From the NCBI RefSeq assembly GCF_000940845.1, contig NZ_CP010341.1, positions 2,520,001 through 2,552,000 on the forward strand: a DNA stretch of 32,000 nt, in the 5' to 3' direction. Made by a program: the position numbers and the translations under genes. Below, piece after piece: positions 2,979 through 27,244 of the stretch. Positions within the stretch are counted from its first letter, which is position 1. Every line of letters begins with the position of its first letter. The DNA is from Propionibacterium freudenreichii subsp. freudenreichii. Its GTDB lineage: Bacteria > Actinomycetota > Actinomycetes > Propionibacteriales > Propionibacteriaceae. The notes below the pieces were generated by a model. It was not told the origin of the DNA and did no database searches. It worked only from the letters and a program-made list of their open reading frames with translations.

Positions 2979-3710
2979 ATGAGCGCCATCACAAGTCCCA
3001 GCGCCGACCTCGACCCCGACGACGAGCTGGACGACACCAGCGAGCTGGATTCGGGGCCCGACGCCACCGGGCGTGCGGCATTGCTGGTGATCGGCATGCA
3101 GCAGGGCAACCTGGACGGCTGTTGGCAGGCCGAGCAGGTGACCGCGACCGTCTCCGACCTGATCGATCGGGCGCGCCTGGCGTCGGTGCCGGTGATCTGG
3201 GTGAACGACCTCACCCCTCCCGCGTCGGTAACCGGCAGCGGCGAATTGCTCAGCTCCCTGACCTGCGGCGCCGGCGAATACGTGGTGCTCAAGCCCTACC
3301 GCGACGGTTTCGAGTCCACCGGGCTGGCCGACTCGTTGGCCACGCTGGGGTCCGGCACGCTGTTCCTGTGCGGGGCATGGTCGCACGAATCGGTGCGCGC
3401 CACCATGGTCGGTGCATTGTCCCGCGGCTATTCGACGGTGCTTGTGGAGGACGCCCACACGGCCCCCTCACGCCATGACGGCACCGCCACGGTGAGCGGC
3501 GAATCCATCGTCTCGGTGGTGAACATGATCGCGGCCGCACCCGGCGCCCCCGCCCAGGACAGCAGCACCATGCCCTGTTACGACGTCAACTTCTCGGCCT
3601 TCGTGCACACCGACGACACCGCCGTCGGTGACGAGGCCCTGGCCGCGCAGGAGCAGGCGCAGGACGAGGCCCTCGACCCCGGGGATGACGACCCCACAGA
3701 CGACGACTGA
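2979..3710 (+). CDS. isochorismatase/cysteine-hydrolase-like protein with degenerate catalytic residues and acidic tails
   Basis: ALLVIGMQQG...VLKPYRDGFEST...LFLCGAWSHESVRATMVGALSRGYSTVLVEDAHTA follows the isochorismatase fold pattern. Start taken at ATG 2979, internal to the 2856 ORF, because the upstream part looks like shadow sequence. Confidence 0.6.
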   Translation: MSAITSPSADLDPDDELDDTSELDSGPDATGRAALLVIGMQQGNLDGCWQAEQVTATVSDLIDRARLASVPVIWVNDLTPPASVTGSGELLSSLTCGAGEYVVLKPYRDGFESTGLADSLATLGSGTLFLCGAWSHESVRATMVGALSRGYSTVLVEDAHTAPSRHDGTATVSGESIVSVVNMIAAAPGAPAQDSSTMPCYDVNFSAFVHTDDTAVGDEALAAQEQAQDEALDPGDDDPTDDD

Positions 3711-3744
3711 GTTCTTCCCGCGAACCGCCTGCCATGGGGCTGCC

Positions 3745-3905
3745 AGCGCGGTACTGTGCCTGCATCACGTGGCGAATCGGGTGCAATTCCCGGGCTGTCC
3801 CGCAACCGTGACAGTGCGTCGACCAGGCGCACTGGAGCCGGACCAAAGCGTGATAACCCACTCACCAACCCGTCGCGGACCGCGGGAGACCTGGGGCGCC
3901 ACATC
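3745..3905 (+). promoter_or_regulatory. cobalamin (B12) riboswitch
   Basis: GGCGAATCGGGTGCAATTCCCGGGCTGTCCCGCAACCGTGA matches the conserved GGGAA..GGTGnnAATCC..GCTGnCCCGCAAC.GT core. A CACTGG element follows, and GGGAGACCTGG (3884-3894) matches the B12 box (..GAGACCTGCC). Downstream, CCTTTC (3918-3923) can pair with the SD GAAAGG (3944-3949). Confidence 0.75.
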
Positions 3906-3955
3906 CGGCTCCATCGGCCTTTCCCAGATCCTCACGGGTCTTTGAAAGGAAGCCC

Positions 3956-6900
3956 ATGCAGGCCCTCCAAGGAAGGCGCCGGTCACGACGGGTGATGGCG
4001 GCCGCGGTAGCAGCCCTCACCGCCATGACCGTGCTGCCCTCCCAGCTCAACGCCGTTGCTGCACCCACTGATTCATTCGCTACCACGATGCCTGATGCGG
4101 CCCTAAGGGGTTGCGTCACCACGGCGCTGAACCTCGATTCCACCGCCGCTCCAACTTCGGACCAGCTCGCAACCGTGACCAGCCTCAGTTGCTCTGGCAA
4201 GGGCGTCGCTGACCTCACCGGTATCTCGGCCCTCCCCAACCTGGGCAAGCTATTTCTGGGCAACAATTCGCTGACCAGCTTGGCCCCACTCGCGACGTCA
4301 ACCAAGGTCTCCTCACTCGACGTCTCCAGTAATCAGCTTTCCGACATCACCCCGACGGCCAACCTGAAGGCCCTTGTCAGTGTGAACGTGGCGAACAACC
4401 GGCTTCGTGATCTTTCCCCGCTGAGCACCCTCCCGAATCTCGGAGGGCTGAGCATCACGTCAAATAGCCAGAAGGCAGTGGGAGCACCCGCCACCTCGGG
4501 CCAAGCGACCGCAGTCCCGACGGCCATTGACAAGACCGGCACGGTGTTCAAGGCCGAGGCACCGAGCGGGGTCACGGTGAGCGGCGCGACCGTCACCTAC
4601 CCGATCGCCGGCACGTACGACTGGTCGTTCAAGGACCAGAGCCTCTACTTCAACGGCACCATCACCGTCACAGTTTCCGCTGCATCGGGCGTGACCATCC
4701 CGGACGCCGGGCTGAGAGGGTGCATCAACGACAAGTTGGCCCTGGCCCCGGACGCCACGCCTACTCAAGACCAGCTCGCATCGATCACCGACCTCTCCTG
4801 TGTCAACAAGGGAGTCACCGACCTGACCGGCATATCGCAGCTGGGCAGCTTGAAGAACCTCACCCTGTCGACCAACAAGATCTCCGATCTCACGCCCCTG
4901 ACTCCCCTGACCGGTCTCGAATCACTCATCCTCACCGGTAATTCTGTCGCGGACGTATCGCCGCTGACGAGCCTGCAGAATCTCGCTGCCCTCACGCTCG
5001 ACCGGAACAACGTCTTGACACTGAACGGGCTGGGATACCTTCCCAAGCTCGCAACCCTTTCAGCATCATCCCAATTCAAGAATGAGGGGAGGACGCGCCT
5101 GGCAAGCATTGCAGGCCTCGACAAATTGACCGGGCTCACGAGCCTCGCGATCAACAACACTGACGTATCGGACCTCACCCCGGTGACTGGCCTCTCCGGC
5201 CTCACCAGATTGTCCGCAACCAACTCCCAGATCTCGTCTGCGGCACCGCTCGCCGCACTTGGTCGGCTCACGGCCCTTGATCTCAGTGGTAACCACATCT
5301 CAGATATTTCGCCCCTGAACAAGCTGGACATGACGTTGAATGCAATGCGCGTCACCGGGCAAACCCTTGCGGCGCCCGAGGCGAAGGCGTCGGTTGCGAC
5401 GGACGCGCCAGGCGTCACCGCGCTGGACGGAAGCATTCTCGTGGCAGCTCCCCCTGCGGGCCTCACGGTCAACGACGCCAAGGTCACCTACGCCTCTCCG
5501 GGCGATTACACCTGGACCTTCGAAGAGAAGACCCCCGGCAGCTATCCGAGGACTTTCTTCAGCGGCAAGATCACCCAGAGGGCAACCGATGCCCCGCCTG
5601 CGGTCGTGGGGGTGGACATCCCTGATACGAATTTCCGTACCTGCCTCGCCGGATTGCTCAACCACAGTGATCCCGCGGCACCCATCAGCGCCGATGAACT
5701 GGCTGGTCTCACCTCCGTGATCTGCGTCGGGAAATCAATCTCGAACCTCACCGGGGCCGCGAACCTGACCGGAGCAACTGAACTGATCCTGTCCACCAAT
5801 TCAATCTCCGACGTCACGCCGTTGCGTGGCTTGACCCAGCTGCAGAAACTCTACCTTCCGGGGAACAAGATCTCAGATCCTGCTCCGCTGTCCTCGCTCA
5901 CGAATCTGAATGAGCTGCTGTTGGGACAGAACCAGGTCACTTCCATCTCGGCGTTGTCCCCGTTGGCCGGACTCACCACGCTGGAAATCAGCCAGAAATA
6001 CGACAAGAACGGAAACACCGGTCTCACCAGCCTTGACGGCGTGCAGCACATGTCTTCGCTGAAGGCTCTGACGGCCAACAACTCCCGTATCTCGGATCTG
6101 GCGCCGTTGAAGGATCTGCACGAACTCAGCTCGCTCTACCTGAACAACAACTCAGTGAATGACCTCACGGCGCTGTCAGGACTGACCGCGCTTGAGAAGC
6201 TCGGGTTGAGTAACAACAACATCTCCAGCGTTACGCCACTGGCTTCCCTGACGAAGCTGTCCCGAATCGACATCGGGAATAATCACCTCATGGACCTGAG
6301 CCCCCTCGGATCCACGGCGATTGATGCCACGTTCAACCTGAACGCAAACAATCAGGCCACCCACCTTGCCACGGTCCCCGTCGGGCTCACCACGAGTGTT
6401 CCGCAACCGCGAGACATGAAGGGCGCAATTGTGCCCGTCACGCCTCCTGCAGGCCTGACGATCACCGATGGCACCGTCACTTACCCAAAGTCGGGCACGT
6501 ATTCATTCACGTGGACCTCATCCACCGGGGAGGGTGGCAAGTCATTCAGCGGAAGCGTTGACCAAGAGGTGGGTGCTGCAGTCATCGGCGCGGCAAACGT
6601 GCCCGACGCGGCACTACGCTCCTGCCTTGCCTCAGCAGCCGGCCTCGACGCCACCGCGTCCCCGACCGTCGACCAGCTCAAGGCACTGACCACCGTGAAG
6701 TGCGCGTCCAAGGGAATCACGAACCTGACCGGCGTTGAGAACCTCACCGCCGCCACGACCATCGACCTGTCGGGCAACACCCTGGCCGACGTCACCCCGC
6801 TGGCGGGGCTCGACAAGCTTGCCACGCTCAACCTGTCCCACACCGGACTGTCGTCGTTGACCACCGTGTCCGCCCTTCCAGCGCTCACCGCGCTCACCAT

Positions 6901-7324
6901 CAGCGGTAATCCGATCACCGACCTGTCGGCGCTCAAGGCGAAGACCGGCCTGGTCCTGCAGGCCACCGACATGACCGGCAGCGCCCCGGACGTGAAGGGC
7001 GGCGTCGCCAGCGACGTGCCCACCGCGTTCGACGCCACCGGCACCTCGGTTCCGCTCGGGGCCCCCGCCGGCGCAACCGTGGCGAACGGCAAGGTGACCT
7101 ACACCGCTGCGGGCAGTTATTCATGGCCCTTCACCACCACCGGCGGAGCCTTCTCGGGGACGATCACGCAGAAGGTCACCAGCGATGCGACCGACCCCGA
7201 CGCCAACAAGGGCGCCCAGGCCTGCGTGCAGGCCGGCAATGTGTGTGGGTCGTGGTGGAACGCGACACAGGCCTTCAGAAGGGCGGCTGCGCCACGAAGT
7301 TCTCCACCGGCACCGAGGCGCTGA
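3956..7324 (+). CDS. secreted internalin-like LRR surface protein, N-terminal reading-frame segment (frameshifted gene, part 1)
   Basis: Signal peptide ([37 protein letters not shown]). Four repeats of [cap ..PDAxLRxC..., about 22-aa LRRs LxxLxxLxLxxNxIsDlsPL, Ig-like inter-repeat ..VTYPxxGTYxWxF...FSGxItQ]. After position 7247 the frame turns into Arg/Pro-rich junk and stops at 7324. Confidence 0.85.
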
Positions 7325-8331
7325 CGAGCGCAGGCTTCACCACTGACAATCCGACCTTCGTCGGAAAGATCGACGGCTACCCGGCAACGGCCCCCGTCGA
7401 TGACCCCGGGCGCTACTCCTACTGGACCTACTGGCACGGCGTCTCCGCCGACCCGACGGCGACCACCCAGACCTACCCGTGGACCTTTTCCGAAGTGGGC
7501 CTCGGCGACTACCACCCGCGTGCCGGATCAGTGGAGGGCTGGCGCTTCGCAGTGAACCTGGGCAGTACCGACAAGGTGCCTGCCCCGAGCTTCGTGCTGA
7601 GCTACACCAACGGCGCGTCCCCGAGCCCGACGCCCACGCCGAGCCCGACGCCTTCCCCCACTCCCACGCCGAGCCCGACGCCCAGCGCGACCCCAACCCC
7701 GACACCCACGCCAAGCCCGAGGCCCAGCGCGACCCCGACGCCCACACCAACCCCGACGCCCACCCCCGTGGCGTGCACCATGTCCTACCCCGATGTGCCG
7801 TCCTCAATGGCCTTTTCGGACGACATCTGCTGGCTGACACAGCACAAGATCGCCACGGGCTGGCCCGACGGCACCTTCCGTCCGGTCACGCCGCTCAACC
7901 GTGACGCCATGGTGGCGTTCCTCTACCGGATGGCCGGCTCCCCGGCGTTCACGCCCACCCGGCAGACCTTCACCGACGTCGACGCGGGCAACATGTTCTT
8001 CAAGCAGATCGAGTGGGCCGCGTCCAATGGCATCGTCACGGGCTGGCCCGACGGCACCTTCCGTCCCACCCAGCCCATCACCCGCGACGCGATTGCCGCG
8101 CTGATCTATCGCCAGGCGGGAAGCCCCGCCGTGACACTGCCCGACCGCCCGTCATTCAATGACGTCTCGCCGACCACGATGTTCTACCGCGAGATCGAAT
8201 GGATGCAGGCCAAGGGCATCGCCAACGGTTGGGCCGACGGCAGCTACCGTCCGCTCAACGATACGAACCGTGACGCGATCGCCGCCTTCCTGCACCGTGC
8301 GACCGATCAGGGGGTGCTGGCCCTGCACTGA
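7243..8331 (+). CDS. C-terminal reading-frame segment of the same surface protein: DUF4430/transcobalamin-like domain, Pro/Thr linker, 3 SLH domains (frameshifted gene, part 2)
   Basis: Frame +2 relative to part 1. [32 protein letters not shown]...FVGKIDGYP...YWTYWHG...[18 protein letters not shown] resembles DUF4430. Three SLH repeats follow (F.DV....F...I.W....I..GW.DG.FRP...). Confidence 0.8.
7618..7767 (+). repeat. coding low-complexity (Pro-Thr/Pro-Ser)n linker repeat
   Basis: [50 protein letters not shown], encoded by reiterated CCGACGCCCACGCCGAGC-type units. Confidence 0.9.
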
Positions 8332-10891: not shown

Positions 10892-12112
10892 ATGGAGACC
10901 GCCATGACCGAACTACCCGTGCCCGTGCCGGGCACCACCAGCGACACCCTCATGTGGGCCGATCCCACCACCGTGGAGCCGGAGGCCCTCGACCAGCTGC
11001 GCGCGATCTCGCGCCTGCCCTGGCTGGCGAAGCTGCGCGTGATGCCCGACGTGCACCTGGGCAAGGGCGCCACCGTCGGCAGCGTGATCGCCATGCGCGA
11101 CGCGGTCTCGCCGGCGGCGGTGGGCGTCGACATCGGCTGCGGCATGGTTGCCGCACGCACCAACCTGACGGTGGACGACCTGCCCGACAGCCTGCATGCG
11201 ATCCGCTCCCGCCTCGAGGAGCTCGTGCCGGTGGGATGGAAGAGCCACACCGGCACTGCCCCGGTGCTGAGCCGCGACGAACAGCTCAAGGGGCGATTCA
11301 CCACCCTGTTCGACCGCTTCGGACAGCTGCGCGCGCCCCACATCGACGACCGCGAGACCCGGGCGCTGTCGCAGTCGGGCACGCTGGGCGGCGGCAACCA
11401 CTTCCTGGAGCTGCAGGCCGACGACACCGGCACCGTATGGCTCATGCTGCACTCGGGATCGCGCAACATCGGCAAGGAACTGGCCGACCGCCACATCACC
11501 GAGGCCAAGGGGCTCGACCACAACCTCGACCTGCCCGACCGCGACCTGGCCGTCTTCCTGGCCGGCACCCCCGAAATGGACGACTACCTCCACGACCTCT
11601 ACTGGGCGCAGGAATATGCGCGCCTGAACCGCGACATCATGATGCGCACCTTCAAGGGCGTCATCACCGAGTTCTTCCCGCACGCCACCTTCGACCACGA
11701 CGTCAACTGCCACCACAACTACGTGTCGCAGGAGTGCTACGACGGCGTCGACCTGATCGTCACGCGCAAGGGCGCCATCTTCGCCGGCAGCGGCACGCTG
11801 GGGCTGATCCCCGGCTCGATGGCCACCGGCTCCTATGTGGTGCGGGGCCTGGGCAACGCCACCGGCCTGTGCTCCGCCTCGCATGGTGCGGGACGACGCA
11901 TGTCGCGCCGTGCGGCCCGTCGCACCTTCACCGTGGACGACCTCGCCGCGCAAACGGCCGGCGTCGAGTCGCGCAAGGACGAGGGCGTGCTCGACGAGAT
12001 CCCCGGCGCCTACAAGGACATCGACGCGGTGATCCACGACCAGACCACCGGGCCGAGCCCGCTCGTGGAGGTGGTGGCGAGGCTGCGCACGCTGCTGTGT
12101 GTCAAGGGCTGA
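10892..12112 (+). CDS. rtcB: RNA-splicing ligase RtcB
   Basis: MPDVHLGKGATVGSV, GVDIGCGM, GGGNHFLELQ, HSGSRNIGK, CHHNY, GSMATGSYVV, SASHGAGR are the RtcB metal/GTP-binding motifs. Confidence 0.9.
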   Translation: METAMTELPVPVPGTTSDTLMWADPTTVEPEALDQLRAISRLPWLAKLRVMPDVHLGKGATVGSVIAMRDAVSPAAVGVDIGCGMVAARTNLTVDDLPDSLHAIRSRLEELVPVGWKSHTGTAPVLSRDEQLKGRFTTLFDRFGQLRAPHIDDRETRALSQSGTLGGGNHFLELQADDTGTVWLMLHSGSRNIGKELADRHITEAKGLDHNLDLPDRDLAVFLAGTPEMDDYLHDLYWAQEYARLNRDIMMRTFKGVITEFFPHATFDHDVNCHHNYVSQECYDGVDLIVTRKGAIFAGSGTLGLIPGSMATGSYVVRGLGNATGLCSASHGAGRRMSRRAARRTFTVDDLAAQTAGVESRKDEGVLDEIPGAYKDIDAVIHDQTTGPSPLVEVVARLRTLLCVKG

Positions 12113-12141
12113 GGCCGGTCACGCGAGGCCGGTCGCACCGG

Positions 12142-13431
12142 TCAGACGCCGCGGCGTCCACCCCTGTGGGGCCAGTGGAACAGCTCACCGGAGTTGTCCA
12201 CAACGCTTGCGGTGGGCGTATCGGTCACGTCCAGCGTCACGCGCACCCAGTGGTCGGCGTCGGCGGGGTCGTGGGCCCGGTAGACGATCCGCGGGTTGGT
12301 GATCGACTCCACCTCGGTGCGCGCATCGGGCAGCCACGCATACCGGCGCCGGATCGCCAGGATCGCCTGATAGGCCCGGTAGGTGGGCAGGCCGAAGCCC
12401 GCCAGCTGGTCGGGACGCTCGGGCATCGGTTGGCGCACCTCGGCGTCGCCACCGGGACGGTCATATTTCTCGCCCCGGAAGGCCTGCTCGTCGCCGTAGT
12501 AGACGCACGGCGTCCCGCCGACGGTGCCCAGCAGCACTGCCGCGAGGATGGCCTTGTCGGCACCCACCTTGGTGGCGATGCGGGTGACGTCGTGGTTGCC
12601 GATGAAGGTGAAGGGACGGAAGTCGTCGAGCATCTCGTTGTGGCGCCCCAGCGTCCACTCGAGCTCGTAGAAGTTCTCGGTGGCAAGCGAGCTCCAGCAC
12701 GCCTTCCACAGCTCGTATTCGGTGACCGCGTCCATGCCCGACTCGTGCACGATCTGCGCGTAGTCGCCGTGGATCACCTCGCCGTAGATGTACAGCTCGG
12801 GGAAGCGCTCGCGCACCGTCGCCAGCACCGGCGCCCAGAATTCTGGGTCCACCGCGTAGGCCGCGTCGAGGCGCCAGCCGTCCACGCCGCGCCCACACCA
12901 GTGCAGCATCACGTCGGTGACCAGCTTGCGCACCTGCGGCGACGCATGGTTGAGCCGCACCAGGTCGTCGCTGCCCTCGAAGTTCAGGCGGGTGGGCGGC
13001 GTGGTGGAGAAGTCGATGTGGAACATGTCGGCCAGGGGCCCATCCGGCCCCTCGGCGAGCGCCTGGCGCAGTGCCGGGTAGCGGGCGCTCACATGGTTGA
13101 AGACGCCGTCGAGCACCAGCTTGATGCCCCGGGCATGGCAGGCGGCGACCAGCGCGTCGAAGTCGGCGTCGTCGCCCAGCCGCGGGTCGATGGCGAAATA
13201 GTCCAGGGTGTCGTAGCCGTGCGACTCCGAGCGGAAGATGGGGCCCAGCACGAGGCCGTTGCACCCCAGGTCGATCAGGTAGTCGAGCCAGTTCTCCAGG
13301 CGCGGCAGGCGATGGGCCACCGGAGCCTGCTCATCCAGGTGGGTGGGGGCGCCGGTGAACCCCAGCGGGTAGACCGTCCACCAGATCACGTCTCGTCGCC
13401 AGTCGCTCACATGCATCCCCTCCGCACGCAT
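12142..13431 (-). CDS. alpha-amylase family (GH13) glycoside hydrolase
   Basis: GYDTLDYFAIDPRLG, KLVLDGVFNHVS, GVDGWRLDAAYAV, IYGEVIHGDY and FIGNHDVTRI correspond to GH13 conserved regions I-IV. An alternative start exists at the MHVSDW Met (13416). Confidence 0.8.
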   Translation of the reverse strand: MRAEGMHVSDWRRDVIWWTVYPLGFTGAPTHLDEQAPVAHRLPRLENWLDYLIDLGCNGLVLGPIFRSESHGYDTLDYFAIDPRLGDDADFDALVAACHARGIKLVLDGVFNHVSARYPALRQALAEGPDGPLADMFHIDFSTTPPTRLNFEGSDDLVRLNHASPQVRKLVTDVMLHWCGRGVDGWRLDAAYAVDPEFWAPVLATVRERFPELYIYGEVIHGDYAQIVHESGMDAVTEYELWKACWSSLATENFYELEWTLGRHNEMLDDFRPFTFIGNHDVTRIATKVGADKAILAAVLLGTVGGTPCVYYGDEQAFRGEKYDRPGGDAEVRQPMPERPDQLAGFGLPTYRAYQAILAIRRRYAWLPDARTEVESITNPRIVYRAHDPADADHWVRVTLDVTDTPTASVVDNSGELFHWPHRGGRRGV

Positions 13432-13519
13432 CGCTGCTTGTCGCAGCCACCCTGCCGTGCCCTATGGGCTCACAGTAGCGGGCGTATCCGCGGGCCCTGC
13501 GCGCGCGACGATCCGCAGA

Positions 13520-14674
13520 TCAGCTGGCCCAGTGCCCCAGGTAGAACAATCGCGCCCACCAAAACATCAGCAGGAGGTCGGCGGCGATGAGCACACCCAC
13601 CACAGCCGTCCTGACGGTGCGTGCGGTGGCGCCGTGCGGACGCCGCCCCAGCCAGCTGCCCACACCGATGAACAGCGGGAACCACAGCAGGTCGGCGCGG
13701 TTCACCGACATGAACCAGGTGGCGATGCTGAATGCGAACACCTGCACCGCCACATAGCCGGCCTGCGCCCATGCCCGACGCACCAGGCAGCCCAGCGCGG
13801 TGAGGCAGCCGATCGCCATCGAGATGATCTCGAAGCGGAAGATCCAGGCACGGGTGGTCTCGGTGGGCCACCGCGCCTCGCTGGTGGCGGCCCAGGTGTT
13901 GTGCAGGCTGTCCCAGGGCGACGTCCATTCGCGCTGCCAGCCAGCCCGTTGCGCGCTCAGCCAGCTGTCCCAATGCCCCGACAGCGTGTACAGGTAGACC
14001 GTGAAGGCCGCCAACACCGCCAGCGGCACCACCAGCCAGGCCAGATTGCGCAGACGCTGCGACCAGGTGGCCACCCGCTTGGCCGGCTCGGCACCCGCCA
14101 CGGTCGGTTCACCACCGAACAGCGCCAGCAGGCCGAGCCCGCCCACCAGGAACAACCCGGAGATGCGGGTGAGGCAGGCCACCGACGCCAGCACGGCCAC
14201 CCAGCCCCAGCGTCCACGACGCGCCAGCACCCATGCCCAGAACGCCACCGCGCAAAACAACGCCTCGGTGTAGCCGACCGTGGTGAACACGGCCATTGGT
14301 GCCAGCAACCAGACGATCGCCGCGTTGAGGCCCCCGAGGCGTTCCATCGCGAAGGCGGCCACCAGGCTCGCGAGCTGCGACACCGCCGCAGCTCCGATGG
14401 CCATCGGCACGCCGACCGCGTCCAGCAGGCGCATCACCATCGGCAGCGCCGGGAAGAATGCCATCTCCTTGGGGTCGGCATATCCGCTGGTGGCGATGAG
14501 CATGTAGTGCTGCACGTCCCAGTTGCCCAGCGCCCGGGCCGGCGTCAACCTCCCCTGGCGCATCGCCAGCAGCAGTGCCGCGCCCATCACCAGCCGGGTG
14601 GCCAGCCATGCGGCGACGATCACCACCGTGCGTGAGCGCAGGGCAGGGCTGGTCCTGGTGGCCGTGGCGCTCAC
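13520..14674 (-). CDS. polytopic membrane mannosyltransferase-like protein (PIG-V / Mannosyl_trans2-like)
   Basis: NWDVQHYMLIATSGYADPKEMAFFPALPMVMRLL resembles the WD..hY..IA..GY...AFFPl.P motif. Multi-TM. GTG start overlaps the stop of the upstream gene (GTGA). Confidence 0.5.
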   Translation of the reverse strand: MSATATRTSPALRSRTVVIVAAWLATRLVMGAALLLAMRQGRLTPARALGNWDVQHYMLIATSGYADPKEMAFFPALPMVMRLLDAVGVPMAIGAAAVSQLASLVAAFAMERLGGLNAAIVWLLAPMAVFTTVGYTEALFCAVAFWAWVLARRGRWGWVAVLASVACLTRISGLFLVGGLGLLALFGGEPTVAGAEPAKRVATWSQRLRNLAWLVVPLAVLAAFTVYLYTLSGHWDSWLSAQRAGWQREWTSPWDSLHNTWAATSEARWPTETTRAWIFRFEIISMAIGCLTALGCLVRRAWAQAGYVAVQVFAFSIATWFMSVNRADLLWFPLFIGVGSWLGRRPHGATARTVRTAVVGVLIAADLLLMFWWARLFYLGHWAS

Positions 14675-19183: not shown

Positions 19184-19259
19184 GGGGCATTAGCTCAGTT
19201 GGTAGAGCGATGGCTTTGCAAGCCATAGGTCAGGGGTTCGAATCCCCTATGCTCCACCA
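19184..19259 (+). tRNA. tRNA-Ala (anticodon UGC), CCA encoded
   Basis: GGGGCAT TA GCTC AGTTGGTA GAGC G ATGGC TTTGCAA GCCAT AGGTC AGGGG TTCGAAT CCCCT ATGCTCC A CCA folds as a cloverleaf by hand. The anticodon loop is cTTTGCAAg. Confidence 0.95.
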
Positions 19260-20621
19260 AAAGTGACATTTTCGAACCCTGCCCCGCAGACCAGCGGGCA
19301 GGGTTCGAAGTGTCTTCGGGGTCGGATGCTTCGGCCTCGGCGATCGGTGCGTGACCAGGGATGACGCAGTCCAACGCTGCCTGGACGGCCTGGTCGGGCT
19401 GGTAGCGGATGGTCTGCTCGTCGTCGAGGATGATCTTGTCGAAGAGGGCTCGGTTGAGGATGCGGCGTTCAGCAGGTTCGCATCGCGCGTAGACGTCGCC
19501 GAGATCGGTGAGGATGTCGGCGAGCTGGTCGAGGCCCTCACGGGCGTCCTCGTAGCTGGTGGCGAGGTTCTCCAGCCGGTGTTCGATAGCGTCGTGAGTG
19601 GTGCGGATGCGTTCCTGCTCGGACTTGAGGAGGTCGAGCGGGATGGCGTCGGCGTAGTGGGCTTGGACGAGCTTGAGTCGCTCGGCGTCGAGCTTCTCCT
19701 TCTGGGCGGTCAGGAGTGCACGTTCGTCGTCGGTGGTGGCTTCGAGCTGGTCGAAGACGGCTCCGAGGACTTCGCGGACACGATCGGCCTCGTCGGGGGT
19801 GAGGCCGTTGGCGCCGTAGGTGGAGTCGATCCGGTCCTCGATGCGGTCGGTGAGGATGGCGGACCGCGTGCAACCGTTCTTCTTGCGGCGCCCGGAGCAG
19901 GTGAAGTACTCGTAGGTGATGCCGGACTTGCCGGTGGGGCATTCGATCATCATCTTCGCCCCGCACGAGCAGTAGAGCGTTCCCTTGAGGTAGTGGTCGT
20001 GGGTGCGGGGCTTCTCTCCGCGCTGGTTCTTCGCCGCCAACTCCGTCTGGACTCGCAGCCAGGTTTCGGTGTCGACGAGAGGGTCGTGAGCGCCGTCGTA
20101 GGTGATGCCGCGGAAAGTGACGCTGCCCTGGTAGTAGGGGTTCGTGAGGACCTTGTGCAGCGCTTTCGTGGTCACCGGTTTCGCGGGGAAGGACGGGGTG
20201 GGGCGGGTGGTGAGCCCACGGGCTTCCAGCTCTTTCGCGAGGGAGGAGAGAGTCCAGTTGCCGGTGGCGTAGGCGGTGAAGGCGAAGGTGACCAGGTCGG
20301 CGCGTTCGGGATCGACGGTGACATCTCGGACCTCACGCCCCTTGGCATCAGTGGTGCGCACGTTCAGGTACCCGAGGGGTGCTTTGGCAGGAGTGCCGCC
20401 CATGCTGGCTTTCTGGGTCATTCCTTTGAGGACTTCTTGAGCGAGGTTCAGGGAGTAGAACTCGGCCATGGAGGCGAGGATGCCGTGCATGAGCATCCCT
20501 GAGGGCGTCTCGTCGATGTTCTCCGTCACGGAGACCAAGCTGATGTTCGCATCCCGAAGCGTCGCGTGGATGATCGCGTCGTCGAGGCGGTTGCGAGCCG
20601 GGCGGTCGACCTTGTTGATGA
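19195..20621 (-). pseudogene. large serine recombinase, 5'-truncated by IS insertion (catalytic N-terminus missing)
   Basis: The frame continues upstream of the first Met as LINKVDRPARNRLDDAIIHATLRDANISLVSVTENID (end of the resolvase domain). Then come a recombinase domain, a zinc ribbon (CSCGAKMMIECP...FTCSGRRKKNGC) and a coiled coil. The reading frame is cut at the IS inverted repeat at 20622. The 3' end of the ORF runs antisense into tRNA-Ala. Confidence 0.8.
19271..19309. repeat. perfect 14-bp-stem dyad directly 3' of the tRNA (tRNA terminator and/or att-like dyad)
   Basis: TTCGAACCCTGCCC (11 nt) GGGCAGGGTTCGAA. The arm resembles the tRNA T-arm GGGGTTCGAA. Confidence 0.5.
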
Positions 20622-22100
20622 GTAACTGTTCAGGTGGTGGCTGGGGTCCAGGCCTGTCCGTTGAACAGGTCGACGAGGACCTGGTAGGTGTTGCAGGCCT
20701 GCTTGGTGGCGGTGGACAGGTAGGAGCGCAGCCGGAGGAAGCCCTCGGCGCCGGTCAGAGTGCGGTGGCATCCCGAGACCTTCTGATGCACCTTGACCAT
20801 GCGGATCTCGCGTTCAGCGGCGTTGTTGTCGGGTGCCAGGCCCGGTGTGGTGGCGAAGCGCAGGTAGTCGTCGATCCGGGCACTGATCCGCCGGGCCAGG
20901 GCGCGGTGCTTCGCCCCGACCTTCCCGGGCACTCCCGAATCCGCACCCAGTCGTGCTGCGTCGACGATGAGACGCCGCCCGGCCTCCAGCAGTCCGGGGT
21001 CGGCCTGTCCTGCGGCGGCGTGGGGATCGCGGATCAGCGGCAGGAGGGCGTCGAGGACCTGGCGGGCCCAGCAGAACGCCCCGGGCGGGTCGTGGGCGTC
21101 GTGGTGGTCGGCCACCGCGACCAGTTCGCGGATCAGGTGGGCGCAGCACAGTTGGTGGTCCACGTGCTCGTAGGTGTCGTAGGGGGCCCACGCGTCATGG
21201 ACCAGCACACCGGTGCAGCCGGGCAGGATGCCGGCGGCATCCATCCCCGCCCGGCCCCGCCGCCGGTGCACACTGATATGCGAGTACTGACCGGTGGAGG
21301 CCGAGTGGACCCAGTGCAGCTTCCCAGCGACCCGCAGCCCGGTCTCATCGGCGTGGACGACAGGGGATGCGGCGATCCGGCCCGCCACCTGGCCGGTGAA
21401 GGCGTCCAGGGGCTCACCGCCCGCCTGTTCGACGGCGGCGGCCACCGCCCCGGTCGACACGGGCATCCCCAGCAGGTCGGCCATGGTCACCGCGACCCGC
21501 CTGATCGGTATGTACTGGCCGGCGGCCAGGTAGACCATCGCCGCACGGGCCGCCGGCCCGTAGGAGACCGGCGCGGCCACCCCGGCCGGAGCCGTCCCCG
21601 CCGTCAGGTGCCCGCAGGCGCACCGGCGGGTGAGGATCTGGTGCTCGGTCACCACCGCGCGCACCTGGGGCAGGTCGACCACCTGCCGGGCCACCACACC
21701 CACGTCGCAGCACTCGTCCAGGACCCCGCCGCAGGCCGGGCACCGGTCCGGGGCGTGGGTCACGATGTGATCGGGATGATCGACCTGGCGCAGGGCCGCA
21801 CCCGGATGGCCGGGCTGGCCGCCCGGGTGCCGTTCTGAGGGGCGCCGCAAGGATTTCGGGGCCGGCTTGGCCAACCCGTCTGCCGAGGGTGGCTTCGACG
21901 AGTTGCGCGAGGTCGACCCGAGTTGGCGTTCCAACTCAGCGATCTGGGCCGCCTGGGCGGCCACCAGCCCGACCAGCTCGTCATAGGTGGGTTTACGCGA
22001 CCGCGGCATGCCCCGAATACTCCACCTCCAGCCCCCGGACCAGCGACGCGACACGCCGCACACCCCGCCAGACCCCCGAACCCACCAGCTGAACAGTTAC
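20622..22100 (-). mobile_element. IS66-family insertion sequence (single-ORF, ISBst12-like type), 1479 bp
   Basis: Terminal inverted repeats GTAACTGTTCAGGTGGTGG (20622-) and the complement of CCACCAGCTGAACAGTTAC (-22100) match 18/19. They enclose one transposase ORF. The flanking 8-mers differ (GTTGATGA vs GACTGGCT). Confidence 0.8.
20630..22009 (-). CDS. IS66-family transposase
   Basis: N-terminal coiled coil (YDELVGLVAAQAAQIAELERQL, SSKPPS), zinc-finger CPACGG...C.CGH, and a DDE core (VHADETGLRV, LVHDAWAPY, QLCCAHLIRE, PDNNAAEREIR). Start taken at MPRSRKPTYDEL. Confidence 0.85.
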   Translation of the reverse strand: MPRSRKPTYDELVGLVAAQAAQIAELERQLGSTSRNSSKPPSADGLAKPAPKSLRRPSERHPGGQPGHPGAALRQVDHPDHIVTHAPDRCPACGGVLDECCDVGVVARQVVDLPQVRAVVTEHQILTRRCACGHLTAGTAPAGVAAPVSYGPAARAAMVYLAAGQYIPIRRVAVTMADLLGMPVSTGAVAAAVEQAGGEPLDAFTGQVAGRIAASPVVHADETGLRVAGKLHWVHSASTGQYSHISVHRRRGRAGMDAAGILPGCTGVLVHDAWAPYDTYEHVDHQLCCAHLIRELVAVADHHDAHDPPGAFCWARQVLDALLPLIRDPHAAAGQADPGLLEAGRRLIVDAARLGADSGVPGKVGAKHRALARRISARIDDYLRFATTPGLAPDNNAAEREIRMVKVHQKVSGCHRTLTGAEGFLRLRSYLSTATKQACNTYQVLVDLFNGQAWTPATT

Positions 22101-22565: not shown

Positions 22566-23099
22566 TCAGGCCTTCTCGGGGGCGCGGGTCTCGGAGCTGA
22601 TGAACCAGGCCTGCTGCTCCAGCTTCTGGGTGTACTCGTGCAGCATGTCCGAGGTGGTCGGATCCTCCGCGTCGACGGCGTCATGCACCTCGCGCATTGT
22701 GGCGACAGTGGCCTCGATGGCGGCCACGATGAGGTCGATGGCGTCGTGGGTCGACACCTCGCCCTGCGGGAACTGGCCGATCGAGGTGCGGGCGGCGACC
22801 ACCGAGGGACGGCCGTCCGGGGTGGCGTGCAGAGCGCGCAGACGCTCGGCGAACTCGTCGGACCCGTCACGGGCGATATCGACGACCTCATCGAGGTTCA
22901 GGTGAAGGTCGCGGAAGTTCGGCCCCACGATGTTCCAGTGGGCCTGCTTGCCGACCAGGCTCAGGGCGATGAGATCGACCAGGACCTTCTGGATGTTGTC
23001 GCTCAGCTCCTGGGACGCGCGGAAGCCCTTCTCAGCGTTCTCCGCGGCGGTCCGGGTGTCTCCAGCGTGCTTCGGAACGGTGATGGACTGCTCGGTCAT
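22566..23099 (-). CDS. dps: Dps-family DNA-binding ferritin-like protein
   Basis: KQAHWNIVGPNFRDLHLNLDE....D..AER..AL ferroxidase-centre pattern. ATG at 23099 is preceded by GAAGGAG. Confidence 0.88.
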   Translation of the reverse strand: MTEQSITVPKHAGDTRTAAENAEKGFRASQELSDNIQKVLVDLIALSLVGKQAHWNIVGPNFRDLHLNLDEVVDIARDGSDEFAERLRALHATPDGRPSVVAARTSIGQFPQGEVSTHDAIDLIVAAIEATVATMREVHDAVDAEDPTTSDMLHEYTQKLEQQAWFISSETRAPEKA

Positions 23100-23222
23100 A
23101 TGACCTACTCCTTCTATCTCGACGTCTCTTTCGCTCTCTGTGGGGTGGAACGTCCCACCGCCCTCCACTATTCCGTGTAGGAGAGCCCGGCGTGTCGCGA
23201 TCGGGCAGGATCCCGCACGCCC

Positions 23223-23912
23223 TCAGCCGGCCGCCAGCTCCTCCAGGGCGTCGACGTCGCGCAGCGTGATCTCCGCGCCCGAGGTGGCGATCAGGCCCTT
23301 CGATCGCAGGGCGTCCAGGCCCCTGCTGAACGACTCCGGGGTCATCCCGAGCAGCGACGCCGTGTCCTTCTTGGCCATCGGCAGCCTCACCCGGTAACCC
23401 GACTCCTCGGCGCTCCCCGGCTGATCCAGCAGATAGCCGGCGATCCGTGCCGGCCGGCTGGTGGAGGCCAGGCTCAGCCGGTGCTCGGCGTCGTCCAGCC
23501 GCTGAGCCAGTGAGCGCAGCATGGCCATCGCCACCGACGGATGGGAGGCGATCAAGGGCGCCAGATCGGCCCGCGAGAAGACGCACATCCGGGTGGGGGC
23601 GGCGGCCTCGATGAGATAGCTCGGTGCCTCCCCGGTGAGGAAGGACCCCTCCCCCACGAAGTCGCCGGGCCCAGCCAGCCGCAGCACCCGCTCGTGGCCG
23701 CTCGCCGAGAGCCGCGACACCTTCACCTGCCCCCGGTGCACCACGGCCAGGCGCCCGGTCGCCGGCCCGAAGGCCTCCCCCCGCTCCAGCGACGTCGGCC
23801 TGGCCAGGGACCCGACGGCGTCCTGATCAGGCGCGCTGAGACCGCCGAACAGCGGGACCAGACGCACACAGCTCACATGCTCGGTGACGTCGGTCAGAGG
23901 CAGGTTCTTCAC
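23223..23912 (-). CDS. Crp/Fnr-family transcriptional regulator
   Basis: cNMP-binding-like beta-roll (..GDFVGEGSFLTGE..) and C-terminal HTH (KKDTASLLGMTPESFSRGLDALRSKGLI). No N-terminal Cys cluster, only a single Cys. Confidence 0.85.
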   Translation of the reverse strand: MKNLPLTDVTEHVSCVRLVPLFGGLSAPDQDAVGSLARPTSLERGEAFGPATGRLAVVHRGQVKVSRLSASGHERVLRLAGPGDFVGEGSFLTGEAPSYLIEAAAPTRMCVFSRADLAPLIASHPSVAMAMLRSLAQRLDDAEHRLSLASTSRPARIAGYLLDQPGSAEESGYRVRLPMAKKDTASLLGMTPESFSRGLDALRSKGLIATSGAEITLRDVDALEELAAG

Positions 23913-24015
23913 CCGTCCGAGGCTAGTGCCGATCGGCCAGAGCTGCGGCGATCAGCCGGAGATGGCCCCGCCCAACCGCCCGATAATCCATGTTGACAAG
24001 GGAGTTCATGTGATC

Positions 24016-24029
24016 TTGACCTACGTCAA
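24016..24029. promoter_or_regulatory. candidate Crp/Fnr-type operator TTGAC-N4-GTCAA
   Basis: Perfect 5-4-5 palindrome TTGACCTACGTCAA in the divergent intergenic region between the Crp/Fnr gene and the HMA/ATPase genes. A TTGACA hexamer lies at 23993-23998. Confidence 0.4.
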
Positions 24030-24100
24030 GGAGTGTGGCGCCGCCTCGAACCAGTATTCGAGGTGTCGCCGGAACAGGCGGCATGACGAAAGGACAGATC

Positions 24101-24340
24101 ATGAGCACCAACGAGATCACCACCACCCACACCGTGCTGCGCGCCGAGGGGTTCTCCTGCCCCTCCTGCGTCGCCAAGATCACCGGGGCCCTGGAGAAGC
24201 TGCCCGGCGTCGGCGACGTCACCGTGCACTTCGCCTCCGGACGCATCGAGGCCGACCACGACGAGGCCCGCACCAGCGTCGACGATCTGATCGCCGCCGT
24301 CGGCAAGCTGGGCTACCCCGCCACCGCCTCGGCCTTCTGA
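24101..24340 (+). CDS. heavy-metal-associated (HMA) domain metallochaperone, CopZ-like
   Basis: 79 aa. VLRAEGFSCPSCVAKITGALEKLPGVGDVTVHF has the ferredoxin-like HMA fold signature with CxxC. AAAGGA lies upstream of ATG 24101. Confidence 0.8.
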   Translation: MSTNEITTTHTVLRAEGFSCPSCVAKITGALEKLPGVGDVTVHFASGRIEADHDEARTSVDDLIAAVGKLGYPATASAF

Positions 24341-24371
24341 GCCGACCGCCAACCGAATGCGAAGGAGAAGG

Positions 24372-26381
24372 ATGATGTCTGCTCTCAAACGCCCGGGGCC
24401 GCGACTTGCCGCCGCCGGGATCCTCATCGCGGCCGCCCTGGTGATGGGCCGCCTCGGCACCGATTGGGCACTGCCCGGCAACATCGCCATGGCTGCCGCC
24501 GCCATCATCTCGACCATCCCGATCGCGGCGGCCGCCCTGCGGGCGCTGCGCTCCAGGACGATCGGGATCGACCTGCTGGTCACCATCGCCTCGATCGGGG
24601 CCCTGGCGATCGGCAACTACTGGGAGGCGGCCGCCGTCACCTTTCTCTTCGCATTCGGCCACGTCCTGGAGCAGGGGGCCATGACGCGCACCCGATCGGC
24701 CCTCACCGATCTGGTGCGCTCGGCCCCCCAGGACGCCGTCCTGGTGCGCGACGGACGCACCGAGACCGTGCCCACCCGCACGCTGAGGCCCGACGACGTC
24801 GTACTGGTCGCCGCCGGCAGCTCCGTCTCGGTCGACGGGACGGTGATCTCGGGATCCGGTGCCGCCGACGAGTCGGCGGTGACCGGGGAATCCATGCCCG
24901 CCGAGAAGACGCCGGGCGACCAGGTGCGATCCGGCACCACGCTCACCTCGGGGATGGTGCAGGTGCGCGCCGAGAAGGTGGGCTCCCAGACCCTGCTGGC
25001 CCGCATCGTGGCCAGGGTCGAGGAGGCCCAGGACGCCCGCGGACGGGTGCAGACGATGATGGATAGGTTCGGACGCTGGTACACCCCGGCCATCATCGTG
25101 CTTGCGATCGTCGTCGGGCTCATCAGCGGCAGCCTCACGCTGGCCCTCACCCTGCTGGTCATCGGCTGCCCTGGCGCCCTCGTGATCTCGGTGCCGGTGG
25201 CCGTGGTCGCCGGTATCGGACGCGGGGCCCGCGACGGCATCCTCATCCGCGGCGGGGAGCATCTGGAGACCGCGGCGAAGGTCGACACCGTCGTCTTCGA
25301 CAAGACCGGGACGCTGACCACCGGGCATCCCGAACTCACCGACGTCGTGGCGTACGGGGCCGCAGGCGAGGAGGAGGTGCTCCGGTGGGCGGCGCTGGCC
25401 GAGATCGGCTCCGGGCACCCGCTGGCCGGCCCGATCCTCGACGCCGCCCGGAGCCACGGCGTCGCCCCCGGGGAAGTTCCCGGCGAGGCCGACGCGATCC
25501 CGGGACGCGGCCTGATCGCCGACGTGCTGGACGCCGAGCACCCGCAGACCCGCCATCGGGTGGTCGTGGGCACAGTGGAACTGGCCGGCCAGGAACTGGG
25601 CTACGACAAGGAGTCCGACACCGCATGGGCGGCCCGGACGTCCGCCCGGCTGGCCGGCGGCGGGGCCACGCCGGTCACCGTCGTCCGCGACGGCGTCCTG
25701 CTCGGCGTGCTCGCGATCGCCGACACGATCCGGGCCGACGCCCCCGCCGCACTGGCCCGGCTGCGCCGGACCGGCGTCACCCGTCTGGTGATGCTGAGCG
25801 GCGACCGCCAGGAGGTCGCAAGCGCGGTGGCCGATCAGCTCGGCATCGACGACGCCCGTGGCGGCCTGCTGCCCGAGGACAAACTGGCTGCAGTCCAGGA
25901 GCTGCGCGCCGGCGGAGCGGTCGTGGCCATGGTGGGAGACGGCATCAACGACGCCCCGGCCCTGGCGGCCGCCGACGTCGGGGTGGCGATGGGGGCGGCC
26001 GGCAGCGCTCTGGCGGTGGAGACCTCCGATATCGCGCTGATGGCCGACGACCTCACCCGGCTGCCGGAGTCCCTGAGGCTGGCCCGCCGCACCCGCGCGG
26101 TGATCCGCCAGAACATCGTCATCGCCGTCGCGACGGTGACCCTGCTGCTGGCCGGGGTGCTGCTCGGCGGGGTGACGATGGCGCTGGGGATGCTCGTCCA
26201 CGAGGCGTCTGTGCTCGTGGTCATCGTCAATGCCCTGAGACTGCTGGGACGCCGAGCCCGCACCCGCGAGGAGTCCCGCCAGGACCAGGCCGGCAAGCAG
26301 GATCAGCCGTGGCAGACTTCAGAGCATGGCGGATCGAGATCGGGACGCCCAGGGGCGTCCCCGCAACAGCAGGCCGCGTGA
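24372..26381 (+). CDS. heavy-metal-translocating P1B-type ATPase (no N-terminal metal-binding domain; CPG transmembrane motif)
   Basis: DKTGTLT, GDGINDAPAL, TGES and MLSGD motifs. The TM motif is IGCPGALVISVP and the terminal TM has HEASVLVVIVNALRL. GAAGGAG lies upstream of the ATGATG start. Confidence 0.88.
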   Translation: MMSALKRPGPRLAAAGILIAAALVMGRLGTDWALPGNIAMAAAAIISTIPIAAAALRALRSRTIGIDLLVTIASIGALAIGNYWEAAAVTFLFAFGHVLEQGAMTRTRSALTDLVRSAPQDAVLVRDGRTETVPTRTLRPDDVVLVAAGSSVSVDGTVISGSGAADESAVTGESMPAEKTPGDQVRSGTTLTSGMVQVRAEKVGSQTLLARIVARVEEAQDARGRVQTMMDRFGRWYTPAIIVLAIVVGLISGSLTLALTLLVIGCPGALVISVPVAVVAGIGRGARDGILIRGGEHLETAAKVDTVVFDKTGTLTTGHPELTDVVAYGAAGEEEVLRWAALAEIGSGHPLAGPILDAARSHGVAPGEVPGEADAIPGRGLIADVLDAEHPQTRHRVVVGTVELAGQELGYDKESDTAWAARTSARLAGGGATPVTVVRDGVLLGVLAIADTIRADAPAALARLRRTGVTRLVMLSGDRQEVASAVADQLGIDDARGGLLPEDKLAAVQELRAGGAVVAMVGDGINDAPALAAADVGVAMGAAGSALAVETSDIALMADDLTRLPESLRLARRTRAVIRQNIVIAVATVTLLLAGVLLGGVTMALGMLVHEASVLVVIVNALRLLGRRARTREESRQDQAGKQDQPWQTSEHGGSRSGRPGASPQQQAA

Positions 26382-26814
26382 CGGCCTCGGCCGGCCCCTG
26401 CCCCGTGGCCAGGAGGGTGTCCCGGTGACTCCGGACGATCTGGAGCTGCCGGGCCCCGAGACCCTGGAGATGGCCCAGGAGCTGCTCGACCGGGGCCGGC
26501 CCTTCCACGCCCACGAGGTACTCGAGGCCAGGTGGAAGAACTGCCCCGAGGCGGAGCGGGACCTGTGGCACGGTCTGGCCCAGCTGGCCGTCGGCGTCAC
26601 CCACCAGATGCGCGGCAACACGACCGGCGCGATCCGGCTCATCGGGCGCGGGGCCATGTACCTGCGCCCCTACGCGACGGCGGCCGCACCGGCCCGCGTC
26701 GAGGAGGTGGACGTGGCGGGCATCCTGTCCTGGGCCGATGCCACCGTCACCGCACTCGAGGACGGCCACTGGATCGACACCGTGGTGACACTTCGTCAGA
26801 AGGCATCCTCATGA
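26326..26814 (+). CDS. DUF309 domain protein
   Basis: RDRDAQGRPRNSRPRDGLGRPLP N-terminus and FHAHEVLEARWK....LWHGLAQLAVGVTH..RGN..GA core typical of DUF309. Overlaps the ATPase 3' end by 56 nt. Confidence 0.7.
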   Translation: MADRDRDAQGRPRNSRPRDGLGRPLPRGQEGVPVTPDDLELPGPETLEMAQELLDRGRPFHAHEVLEARWKNCPEAERDLWHGLAQLAVGVTHQMRGNTTGAIRLIGRGAMYLRPYATAAAPARVEEVDVAGILSWADATVTALEDGHWIDTVVTLRQKASS

Positions 26815-26836
26815 GGCTGCATCAGAAGGGGTCGTC

Positions 26837-27211: not shown

Positions 27212-27244
27212 AGCCGCGGGCGACCCGCGTGATATTTTCAAGGA

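Follow-up and report, generated by a model that had tools for sequence, protein, structure and literature searches.

What is encoded between the leucine-rich repeat (LRR) modules and the S-layer homology (SLH) wall anchors of a long surface protein gene of Propionibacterium freudenreichii, and is this gene controlled by vitamin B12? The gene is located on the + strand of a 32-kb stretch of the genome (contig NZ_CP010341.1, positions 2,520,001 to 2,552,000; G+C content 68%), which is referred to as the window and whose own coordinates are used throughout. We identify it as inlA (internalin A); it starts in the window with the ATG at 3956 and is interrupted by a frameshift. The initial annotation, made from the sequence, had proposed that a DUF4430-type domain akin to transcobalamin (TC), placed behind a B12 riboswitch in a wall-tethered protein, serves in corrinoid capture, and this interpretation is partly supported by the present analysis. 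The best explanation overall, in which we have a fair degree of confidence, is that inlA codes for a riboswitch-controlled, wall-anchored corrinoid binder carrying a TC-beta-like domain.

The domain between the repeats and the anchors

The gene is divided over two overlapping frames, the open reading frame (ORF) 3956-7324 (1122 aa) and the ORF 7123-8331 (402 aa). Removal of one GT at the junction gives a continuous protein of 1457 aa, the repaired inlA product. A Pfam scan of this protein returned LRR_4 (E 6.6e-58, in 11 stretches), LRR_8 (E 7.3e-27), LRR_EndoS and three SLH domains (E 1.8e-26), and found no match for residues ~1085-1215. The domain of about 130 aa discussed here, domain X, is encoded at 7220-7617 (+), in the second frame from 7243 onwards. 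The peptide to which the initial annotation had pointed is indeed present, being encoded at 7243-7555 in the frame of the ORF 7123-8331.

The domain very probably has the fold of the transcobalamin beta domain. An AlphaFold2 model computed from 79 sequences has a mean pLDDT of 85.7 and a pTM of 0.83. Compared with the PDB by Foldseek, it matched on ranks 1-17 nothing but chains of transcobalamin and haptocorrin (HC), the TC beta domain in isolation (5no0, 5np4) and 3u7z, a protein of bacterial origin. These matches have probabilities of 0.99-1.0 and E-values of 9e-4 to 5e-2; normalised to the isolated beta domains, their TM-scores are 0.53-0.68. After rank 17 there follow ubiquitin-like folds with a probability <0.33. 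The relation to the TC beta domain claimed in the initial annotation is thus borne out by the comparison proposed there, at a sequence identity of 16-19%. A similarity to BtuG-type binders had also been put up for checking, and here none was seen: the model is a small alpha+beta domain and no propeller, and no BtuG structure is among the Foldseek matches in the PDB. A search of PDB sequences with the family profile gave chance antibody matches only.

At the profile level, an alignment of 70 family domains (A1) was compared by hhalign to a beta-domain profile built from verified sequences of human and bovine TC, human intrinsic factor (IF) and human HC, with a probability of 72.5% and an E of 3.3e-5 over 56 columns. 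In this comparison GF..-..G-FV..I.G is paired with TC G349-G368, YW with F376-W377 and G..dY.P..G with G390-G399. TC 349-406 is a region which we take to include cobalamin-contacting segments.

The family itself became visible with an exhaustive phmmer search of 1.84 billion representatives, which yielded 427 homologues at E<=1e-3; an earlier word-index homology search had returned 2 matches only, and a homologue search with an alignment of the LRR-fusion proteins (A5) returned none of the large proteins. The best 150 of the 427 homologues are mostly proteins of 150-350 aa from high-G+C organisms of the Actinobacteria type. They begin with a signal peptide, carry the domain at residues ~35-145 and end, after a linker of low complexity, in a transmembrane or LPXTG-type anchor at the C-terminus. 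Fusions to LRRs are found in both orders, with the LRRs first in P0003, P0004, P0005, P0006 and P0019 and the domain first in P0007, P0013 and P0018. Two positions are invariant in A1, one Cys and one Trp, and a second Cys is invariant in the alignment of the nine closest homologues (A3). The conserved motifs of A1 are VWVVV, G.xAL.SAGF, GF(V/I)..I.G.P, YWSYW and GS.EGW (GSVEGWR in the window copy), and the window copy retains every family-conserved residue.

Membership in PF14478 (DUF4430), as assumed in the initial annotation, was not recovered, since hmmscan of the window domain alone gave no match at E<=1 (gathering cutoff 23.8 bits). The same model matches 16 of the 70 members of A1, all sub-threshold with a best E of 6.1e-4, and no other Pfam family recurs among them. 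The link to DUF4430 and transcobalamin is therefore visible only at the level of the family and of the fold, and the domain is best classified as a distant relative of DUF4430 which is not a PF14478 member by hidden Markov model. Most close homologues, including the orthologue at locus L005, bear the precomputed label PF28005 ('SCO2322'), and to the actinobacterial family now carrying that label we assign the domain. The model NF040672 ('SCO2322 family') matches the C-terminal half of the window domain only (29.2 bits, E 1e-6), below its cutoff of 85 bits. In the literature on DUF4430, SCO2322 and Gram-positive corrinoid surface binders no characterisation of the domain X family was found.

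A true SCO2322 protein, P0248 (L009 8001-8627), was seen by eye to have its two halves swapped, with YWSYW...GSVEGWRF first and V..ID..C..AL..GYPA second. This order suggests a circular permutation within the superfamily.

The leader RNA and the related loci

The second element of the proposal was a B12 riboswitch upstream of the gene. No member of the cobalamin riboswitch clan (CL00101) scores above the Rfam gathering threshold in the window, but a permissive search detected an AdoCbl-II-like aptamer core (RF01689) at 3757-3829 (+) in the 5' untranslated region of inlA, with 33.9 bits against a gathering score of 36.5 and an E of 5.6e-6. This core ends 127 nt upstream of the inlA ATG, and conservation of the leader in a comparative alignment extends over roughly 3735-3850.

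Related loci were collected from genome contigs, a search with the single protein giving four distant loci of Tessaracoccus or other Propionibacteriaceae. The comparison set is composed of fifteen loci: eight carry an LRR+domain gene (the window, L005 and L011-L016) and seven carry small members of the family (L001-L004, L006, L009 and L010). A coding-strand match to the cobalamin clan is found directly upstream of the LRR+domain gene, within ~200 nt, in 8/8 of the former. In L005 and L011-L016 these matches end 0-165 nt before the gene start and score 22.7-35.7 bits (E 0.001-0.016 for 55 kb searched). Of the small-member loci six of seven have a riboswitch match, above gathering for RF00174 in L006 (38.3 bits) and L010 (41.7 bits) and with 25.7-34.6 bits in L001, L002, L003 and L004; in L009, the locus of the permuted SCO2322 type from a Streptomycetaceae genome, there was no cobalamin-clan match at E<=0.01. 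Overall, a coding-strand match stands directly upstream of the domain X gene or of its operon in 14/15 loci.

Ten related leaders, three of them with elements above the gathering score, have an invariant core reading GGTG..CC..CTG.C.CGCAACCGT and then AG.CGGA, with variable helices on either side. In the RNAalifold consensus of these leaders, 8 of the 14 pairs have compensatory double changes, so that the 5' untranslated region on the coding strand contains both a conserved aptamer core and covarying helices. Because of this comparison, with its recurrent position and strand, invariant core and covariation, the leader element is taken as a genuine member of the cobalamin riboswitch clan, a variant which is scored poorly by the Rfam models. 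What was claimed for the leader accordingly holds at the level of the eight LRR+domain loci, in all of which the element is conserved, while the score in the window itself stays below gathering.

Minimum free energy and centroid folds of 3740-3965 both predict a hairpin from 3918 to ~3950-3952 (+), in which CCTTTCC pairs with GAAAGG and which reaches as far as the GAAAGGAAG site, 4 nt ahead of the inlA ATG (3956). This hairpin is a candidate expression platform which would sequester the ribosome-binding site. We consider it highly likely that the intact inlA alleles are regulated in dependence of B12; the response of the leader to its ligand and the polarity of that response are inferred from this arrangement. 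Genome and transcriptome literature on P. freudenreichii lists B12 riboswitches only for cbiL, cbiB/cobD, mutA and cbiM, and no mention of one upstream of inlA was found in the literature (including PMC5902329, PMC5644110 and PMC11494915).

The company kept by the domain in these loci also agrees with what had been proposed, namely that the family belongs to B12-regulated loci. Most small family members are located in riboswitch-controlled operons of energy-coupling factor (ECF) transporters, often with alpha/alpha-barrel proteins. In L001 and L003, both from Tessaracoccus, the riboswitch is followed by genes for a domain protein and CbiQ and then by an ORF which by its place would be the ATPase but which, unlike CbiQ and the S component, has no Pfam match; the ECF_trnsprt S component and a protein of alpha/alpha-barrel type complete the set. 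In L010 two domain genes precede those for CbiQ, a double ABC ATPase and ECF_trnsprt, L009 contains a barrel-like protein, SCO2322 and an ECF module made up of CbiQ, a double ABC ATPase and an S component, and in L016 the LRR+domain gene is followed by another domain protein and CbiQ at the edge of the fetched locus. From these arrangements the domain appears as a recurrent extracytoplasmic partner of B12-riboswitch-controlled ECF transporters, often together with a protein resembling the alpha half of TC.

Three of the loci have further features. In L006 (6293-13024), a metagenomic operon of Propionibacteriaceae type behind the above-gathering riboswitch, three paralogous TC-beta-like proteins are encoded. 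The first of them (6454-8004, 516 aa) combines the domain, a Pro/Thr-rich (PT) linker, a weakly matching squalene-hopene-cyclase (alpha/alpha-barrel) region and an LPRTG sorting signal, an order of domains which is reversed with respect to transcobalamin. The 3' part of the operon codes for the two other domain proteins, CbiQ (the ECF T component), a double ABC ATPase and, in the S-component position, a 271-aa protein for which no Pfam family was matched. In L003 a second cobalamin-clan match (12111-12219, 30.0 bits) lies directly upstream of the alpha/alpha-barrel-like gene 12281-13840 of the same ECF locus; since the barrel-like gene is behind a riboswitch match of its own, the two halves of the putative binder may be regulated separately. 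In L014 (4985-6543) a second riboswitch (RF00174, 38.6 bits, above gathering) is found directly downstream of the LRR+domain gene, and the gene behind it has weak matches to PF01122 (Cobalamin_bind, eukaryotic cobalamin-binding protein) and to PF14478. Cut by the contig end, this neighbour is a candidate full-length bacterial transcobalamin-like protein.

The inlA gene of this strain and its surroundings

The initial annotation was not aware of any characterised protein of this layout, but the gene is the known P. freudenreichii inlA, whose surface-exposed product InlA (internalin A, 146 kDa) is associated with the S-layer and has been implicated both in adhesion and in immunomodulation (PMC5902329). 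An exact-sequence look-up showed that the 1122-aa product of ORF 3956-7324 (+), which carries the signal peptide and the four LRR modules, is identical to RM25_2253 of P. freudenreichii DSM 20271 (AJQ91957.1). The same sequence is present in JS21 and other strains, on 28 contigs altogether. Other strains have proteins of 1415 or 1402 aa annotated as 'leucine-rich repeat / SLH domain-containing', which belong to the same 90% cluster. This cluster also contains pieces of 587, 706 and 828 aa, which show that inlA carries different lesions in further strains. Between the repaired window protein and the CIRM-BIA 129 allele there are two substitutions and a difference in the PT linker, which is here 42 aa longer; this tract of (CCN-ACN)n repeats is polymorphic in length.

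The lesion is located at 7241-7246 (+), where the window reads GTGTGT in place of the GTGT of the intact alleles, an insertion of 2 bp. Deletion of 7241-7242 restores the junction exactly as in the intact P. freudenreichii alleles (1415 and 1402 aa), and the homologues P0001 and P0002 match the repaired junction too. The product of RM25_2253 (113.9 kDa) has been detected in the surfaceome of DSM 20271 with 32 peptides and 53% coverage (PMC11494915 supplement). Since the same truncated ORF is present on 28 contigs and its 113.9-kDa product was detected by mass spectrometry, the frameshift is a real allele and not an obvious reading error. The frame correction which the initial annotation had assumed therefore meets a real junction, one that matches the intact alleles, but the insertion is a true one and the product in this strain is truncated.

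Three other explanations of the split gene were considered. Sequencing error as the sole explanation was rejected in view of the identical ORF from several strains and of the mass-spectrometric detection. Programmed -1 frameshifting was rejected as well, there being no slippery heptamer in the overlap 7123-7324 and no extra GT in the intact alleles. The ORF of the second frame, if translated independently from its ATG at 7123, would give a product devoid of a signal peptide, which makes a functional product unlikely.

In this strain the LRR part is thus produced on its own, lacking both the TC-like domain and the SLH anchor. All components named in the initial annotation (signal peptide, PT linker, three SLH domains and four LRR modules) are encoded, but the protein would be wall-tethered only in the intact alleles, the frameshift having cut the domain and the anchor off the LRR part. 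A corrinoid-capture function, if there was any, is for the same reason probably lost in this lineage. Truncated, anchorless and strain-specific InlA variants which are released into the medium have been described (PMC5902329), and JS22 is one of the strains known to have a truncated, anchorless variant.

Frameshifts also split the metagenomic LRR+domain orthologues L005, P0002 and P0030, either by assembly errors or by recurrent natural inactivation. The L005 orthologue (3310-7393) is broken into four called genes, and in P0002 and P0030 the reading frame is lost within the domain.

In its intact layout InlA begins with a Sec signal peptide, which is followed by four LRR modules of internalin type, the TC-beta-like domain, the PT linker and three SLH anchors. 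For RM25_2253 a signal peptide of type SP(Sec/SPI) is given in the published surfaceome table (PMC11494915 supplement). The four modules, each composed of a cap, LRRs and an Ig-like region, occupy 4088-7180 (+) according to Pfam LRR_4 and a motif map, with cap motifs xPDxxLRxC beginning at 4088, 4697, 5618 and 6599 and Ig-like motifs TYxxxGxYxWxF at 4595, 5486, 6479 and 7097. InlA is thereby internalin-like, with LRR_4/LRR_8-type repeats followed by a putative Ig-like inter-repeat region recognised by its motifs. The frame of the LRR part continues out of frame for 84 nt beyond the insertion until its stop codon. Downstream of the domain are the Pro/Thr/Ser-rich linker (7618-7779, +), delimited by the motif map and by comparison with CIRM-BIA 129, and the three SLH wall-binding domains with the stop codon (7780-8331, +). 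Three SLH domains and a signal peptide are those of an SLH-anchored surface protein; in this strain the frameshift puts these two parts into different frames.

Other genes of the window code for an isochorismatase-like protein, a major facilitator superfamily transporter, Tag, RtcB and others. A gene of the chlorite-dismutase family (1580-2260, - strand, Pfam E 5.6e-70), probably the coproporphyrin-dependent haem-synthesis enzyme of Actinobacteria, is located 1.7 kb upstream of inlA; no evident link between the two genes was seen in the window. A tRNA gene (19184-19256, +) and a large serine-recombinase-type ORF (19195-20538, -) overlap at the end of the latter; an IS66-family transposase (20630-22063, -) is adjacent, and the region 19184-22063 has the appearance of one border of an integrated mobile element. 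Downstream of these genes, 22566-31163 contains a ferritin/Dps-like protein, a Crp-family regulator, a P-type ATPase (24357-26381) and a 935-aa multicopper-oxidase/cupredoxin protein (28356-31163), a possible island for metal (copper) homeostasis.

Proposed function and comparison with known systems

On the reading which we prefer, the leader riboswitch would hide the ribosome-binding site and permit translation when cellular adenosylcobalamin is low, an expression platform masking this site implying that InlA is produced at low intracellular B12. The protein would then be exported and retained on the wall via its SLH domains, and corrinoid binding by the domain would resemble that of the isolated TC beta domain. 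The LRR modules could provide a second binding function, perhaps for a corrinoid-carrying macromolecule or for a partner protein. The corrinoid would be handed to a membrane transporter, in relatives of the ECF type and encoded beside paralogous domain proteins. We infer both the direction of the regulation and this hand-off. For the binding step itself, our assessment leans modestly in favour of a corrinoid as the ligand. The isolated human TC beta domain co-purifies with cobalamin and was crystallised with both cobalamin and cobinamide (PMC5599065), and in rat TC the interface between cobalamin and the beta domain was ranked as the most favourable among three interfaces (PMC11107200).

A number of points weigh against a corrinoid binder. 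Neither ECF nor B12 genes are present in the 32-kb window, and InlA has no alpha/alpha-barrel partner domain. The domain gives no PF14478 match of its own and stays below the NF040672 cutoff, and the riboswitch score is below gathering in the window and in 7/8 LRR-gene loci. B12 riboswitches also govern genes for proteins that do not bind B12, metE and nrd among them. For every member of the family, corrinoid binding is a prediction. P. freudenreichii produces its own B12, so that its need for scavenging is uncertain, and truncated inlA alleles recur among strains. The related TC-like ECF system of Lactobacillus sakei has been linked experimentally to haem and not to B12 (bioRxiv 10.1101/864751). 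The own B12 synthesis, the repeated inactivation of inlA and the lack of nearby ECF or B12 genes also fit the decay of a scavenging function in a producer.

An alternative is an InlA that is purely adhesive and immunomodulatory. The domain would then be a beta-grasp spacer of structural use, binding no corrinoid, and the riboswitch would only couple adhesion to the B12 status, for instance by favouring attachment to hosts or partners under B12 scarcity. This would agree with the published description of InlA as an adhesin and immunomodulatory surface protein (PMC5902329). It would also agree with the ubiquitin-like folds that follow the TC-like matches among the structural neighbours, with the missing alpha-domain partner and transporter, and with the control of non-binding genes by B12 riboswitches. 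It has to face, however, that the domain recurs in B12-riboswitch-controlled ECF operons together with alpha/alpha-barrel proteins, a combination that mirrors the two halves of transcobalamin, and that the most conserved family motifs align with TC 349-406, where we presume some of the cobalamin contacts to lie. We therefore regard a purely adhesive role as unlikely.

Less probable still is that the domain binds another tetrapyrrole, for example haem, or a different cofactor, as proposed for Lsa1839/Lsa1840 of L. sakei. Deletion of the ECF-like operon lsa1836-1840 lowered haem uptake in that species (bioRxiv 10.1101/864751), and the identity to the TC beta domain is just 16-19%, but the coding-strand cobalamin-clan matches directly upstream in 14/15 loci indicate corrinoids as the relevant class of ligand. 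A mere chance resemblance, with an unrelated fold and an RNA match that is noise, is hardly credible: the missing PF14478 match, the sub-gathering Rfam score and the spurious antibody matches would speak for it, but top Foldseek matches exclusively from the TC family, 427 family representatives, a conserved RNA core with covariation and riboswitch matches at the same position and strand in 14/15 loci effectively refute it.

The wall-anchored corrinoid binder, if confirmed, would concern a food-grade industrial producer of vitamin B12 and a studied probiotic surface protein. A riboswitch before inlA and a TC-like domain within it would add a surface protein to the B12 regulon of P. freudenreichii and would supply a concrete biochemical hypothesis for InlA, hitherto called only an 'adhesin'. 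Repeated truncation of inlA among dairy strains is in keeping with the loss of scavenging in a B12 producer and bears on the choice of probiotic and cheese strains. A more speculative extension, to which we give little weight, is that InlA-type proteins are Gram-positive receptors for 'corrinoid piracy', in which the LRRs dock corrinoid-loaded carriers or producer cells and the domain strips the corrinoid for an ECF importer.

InlA, LRR+SLH surface proteins, bacterial TC-like proteins beside ECF modules and B12-regulated surface binders like BtuG are already known, and no description of a riboswitch-controlled domain X family with ECF transporters and barrel-like partners in Actinobacteria was found in the searchable literature. 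The comparative data outline a widespread and apparently unstudied actinobacterial module of TC-beta-like proteins, often with barrel proteins and an ECF transporter, under B12 riboswitches. This module resembles a bacterial counterpart of both transcobalamin halves and makes Gram-positive corrinoid capture at the surface directly testable.

Compared to the beta domains of TC, IF and HC and to the DUF4430 proteins (RUMGNA_00854, PDB 3u7z), the window domain has the same fold, extracytoplasmic location and order of elements (strand, helix, 'G-F/Y-V/L..I/V.G', 'YW/FW', 'G..dY.P..G'). It differs in that an additional helix, which carries a conserved Cys pair, precedes these elements at the N-terminus, that the insert separating the YW strand from the last hairpin is longer, and that it is fused to LRR and SLH domains and not to an alpha6/alpha6 barrel. 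The SCO2322 family (PF28005/NF040672), secreted proteins of Actinobacteria encoded beside prenyltransferase-like proteins and ECF transporters, has in common with it the YWSYW...GSVEGWRF half and the ECF context. SCO2322-type proteins are small (~200-250 aa) and have a transmembrane helix or an LPXTG anchor, in distinction to the LRR and SLH fusion of InlA, and in the SCO2322 protein P0248 the halves are in the opposite order. In L. sakei Lsa1839/Lsa1840 are secreted TC beta-like and alpha-like proteins with ECF T, A and S components, as in L001, L003, L006, L009 and L010; they differ in coming from a Firmicute, in having been linked by experiment to haem uptake, in having no reported B12 riboswitch and in lacking an LRR/SLH fusion (bioRxiv 10.1101/864751).

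As regards surface proteins, the InlA of the literature is the same gene, with intact alleles of 1415 aa containing LRR and SLH domains, and no mention of a transcobalamin-like domain in it was found in the literature (including PMC5902329, PMC5644110 and PMC11494915). BtuG would be a functional analogue of the role proposed for InlA and is not known to have fold or sequence in common with domain X. BtuG is a beta-propeller lipoprotein of the Gram-negative outer membrane which works with BtuB. In Bacteroides it is exposed at the surface, captures B12 and is encoded in loci regulated by B12 riboswitches (PMC6143338). The closest likeness in layout is offered by IlsA of Bacillus cereus, a Fur-regulated receptor for haem, haemoglobin and ferritin which is composed of a NEAT domain, LRRs and three SLH domains (PMC2777315). 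Both proteins would combine a tetrapyrrole-binding domain, putative in InlA, with LRRs and SLH anchors, and both would be induced when the nutrient is scarce. The likeness is one of analogy only, since NEAT is not homologous to the TC-beta-like domain, and the regulator is the Fur protein in one case and a riboswitch in the other, for iron or haem and for B12, respectively. If the piracy described above were true, InlA-type proteins would be the B12 counterpart of the IlsA/Isd haem systems, and InlA would be tied to vitamin B12 status.

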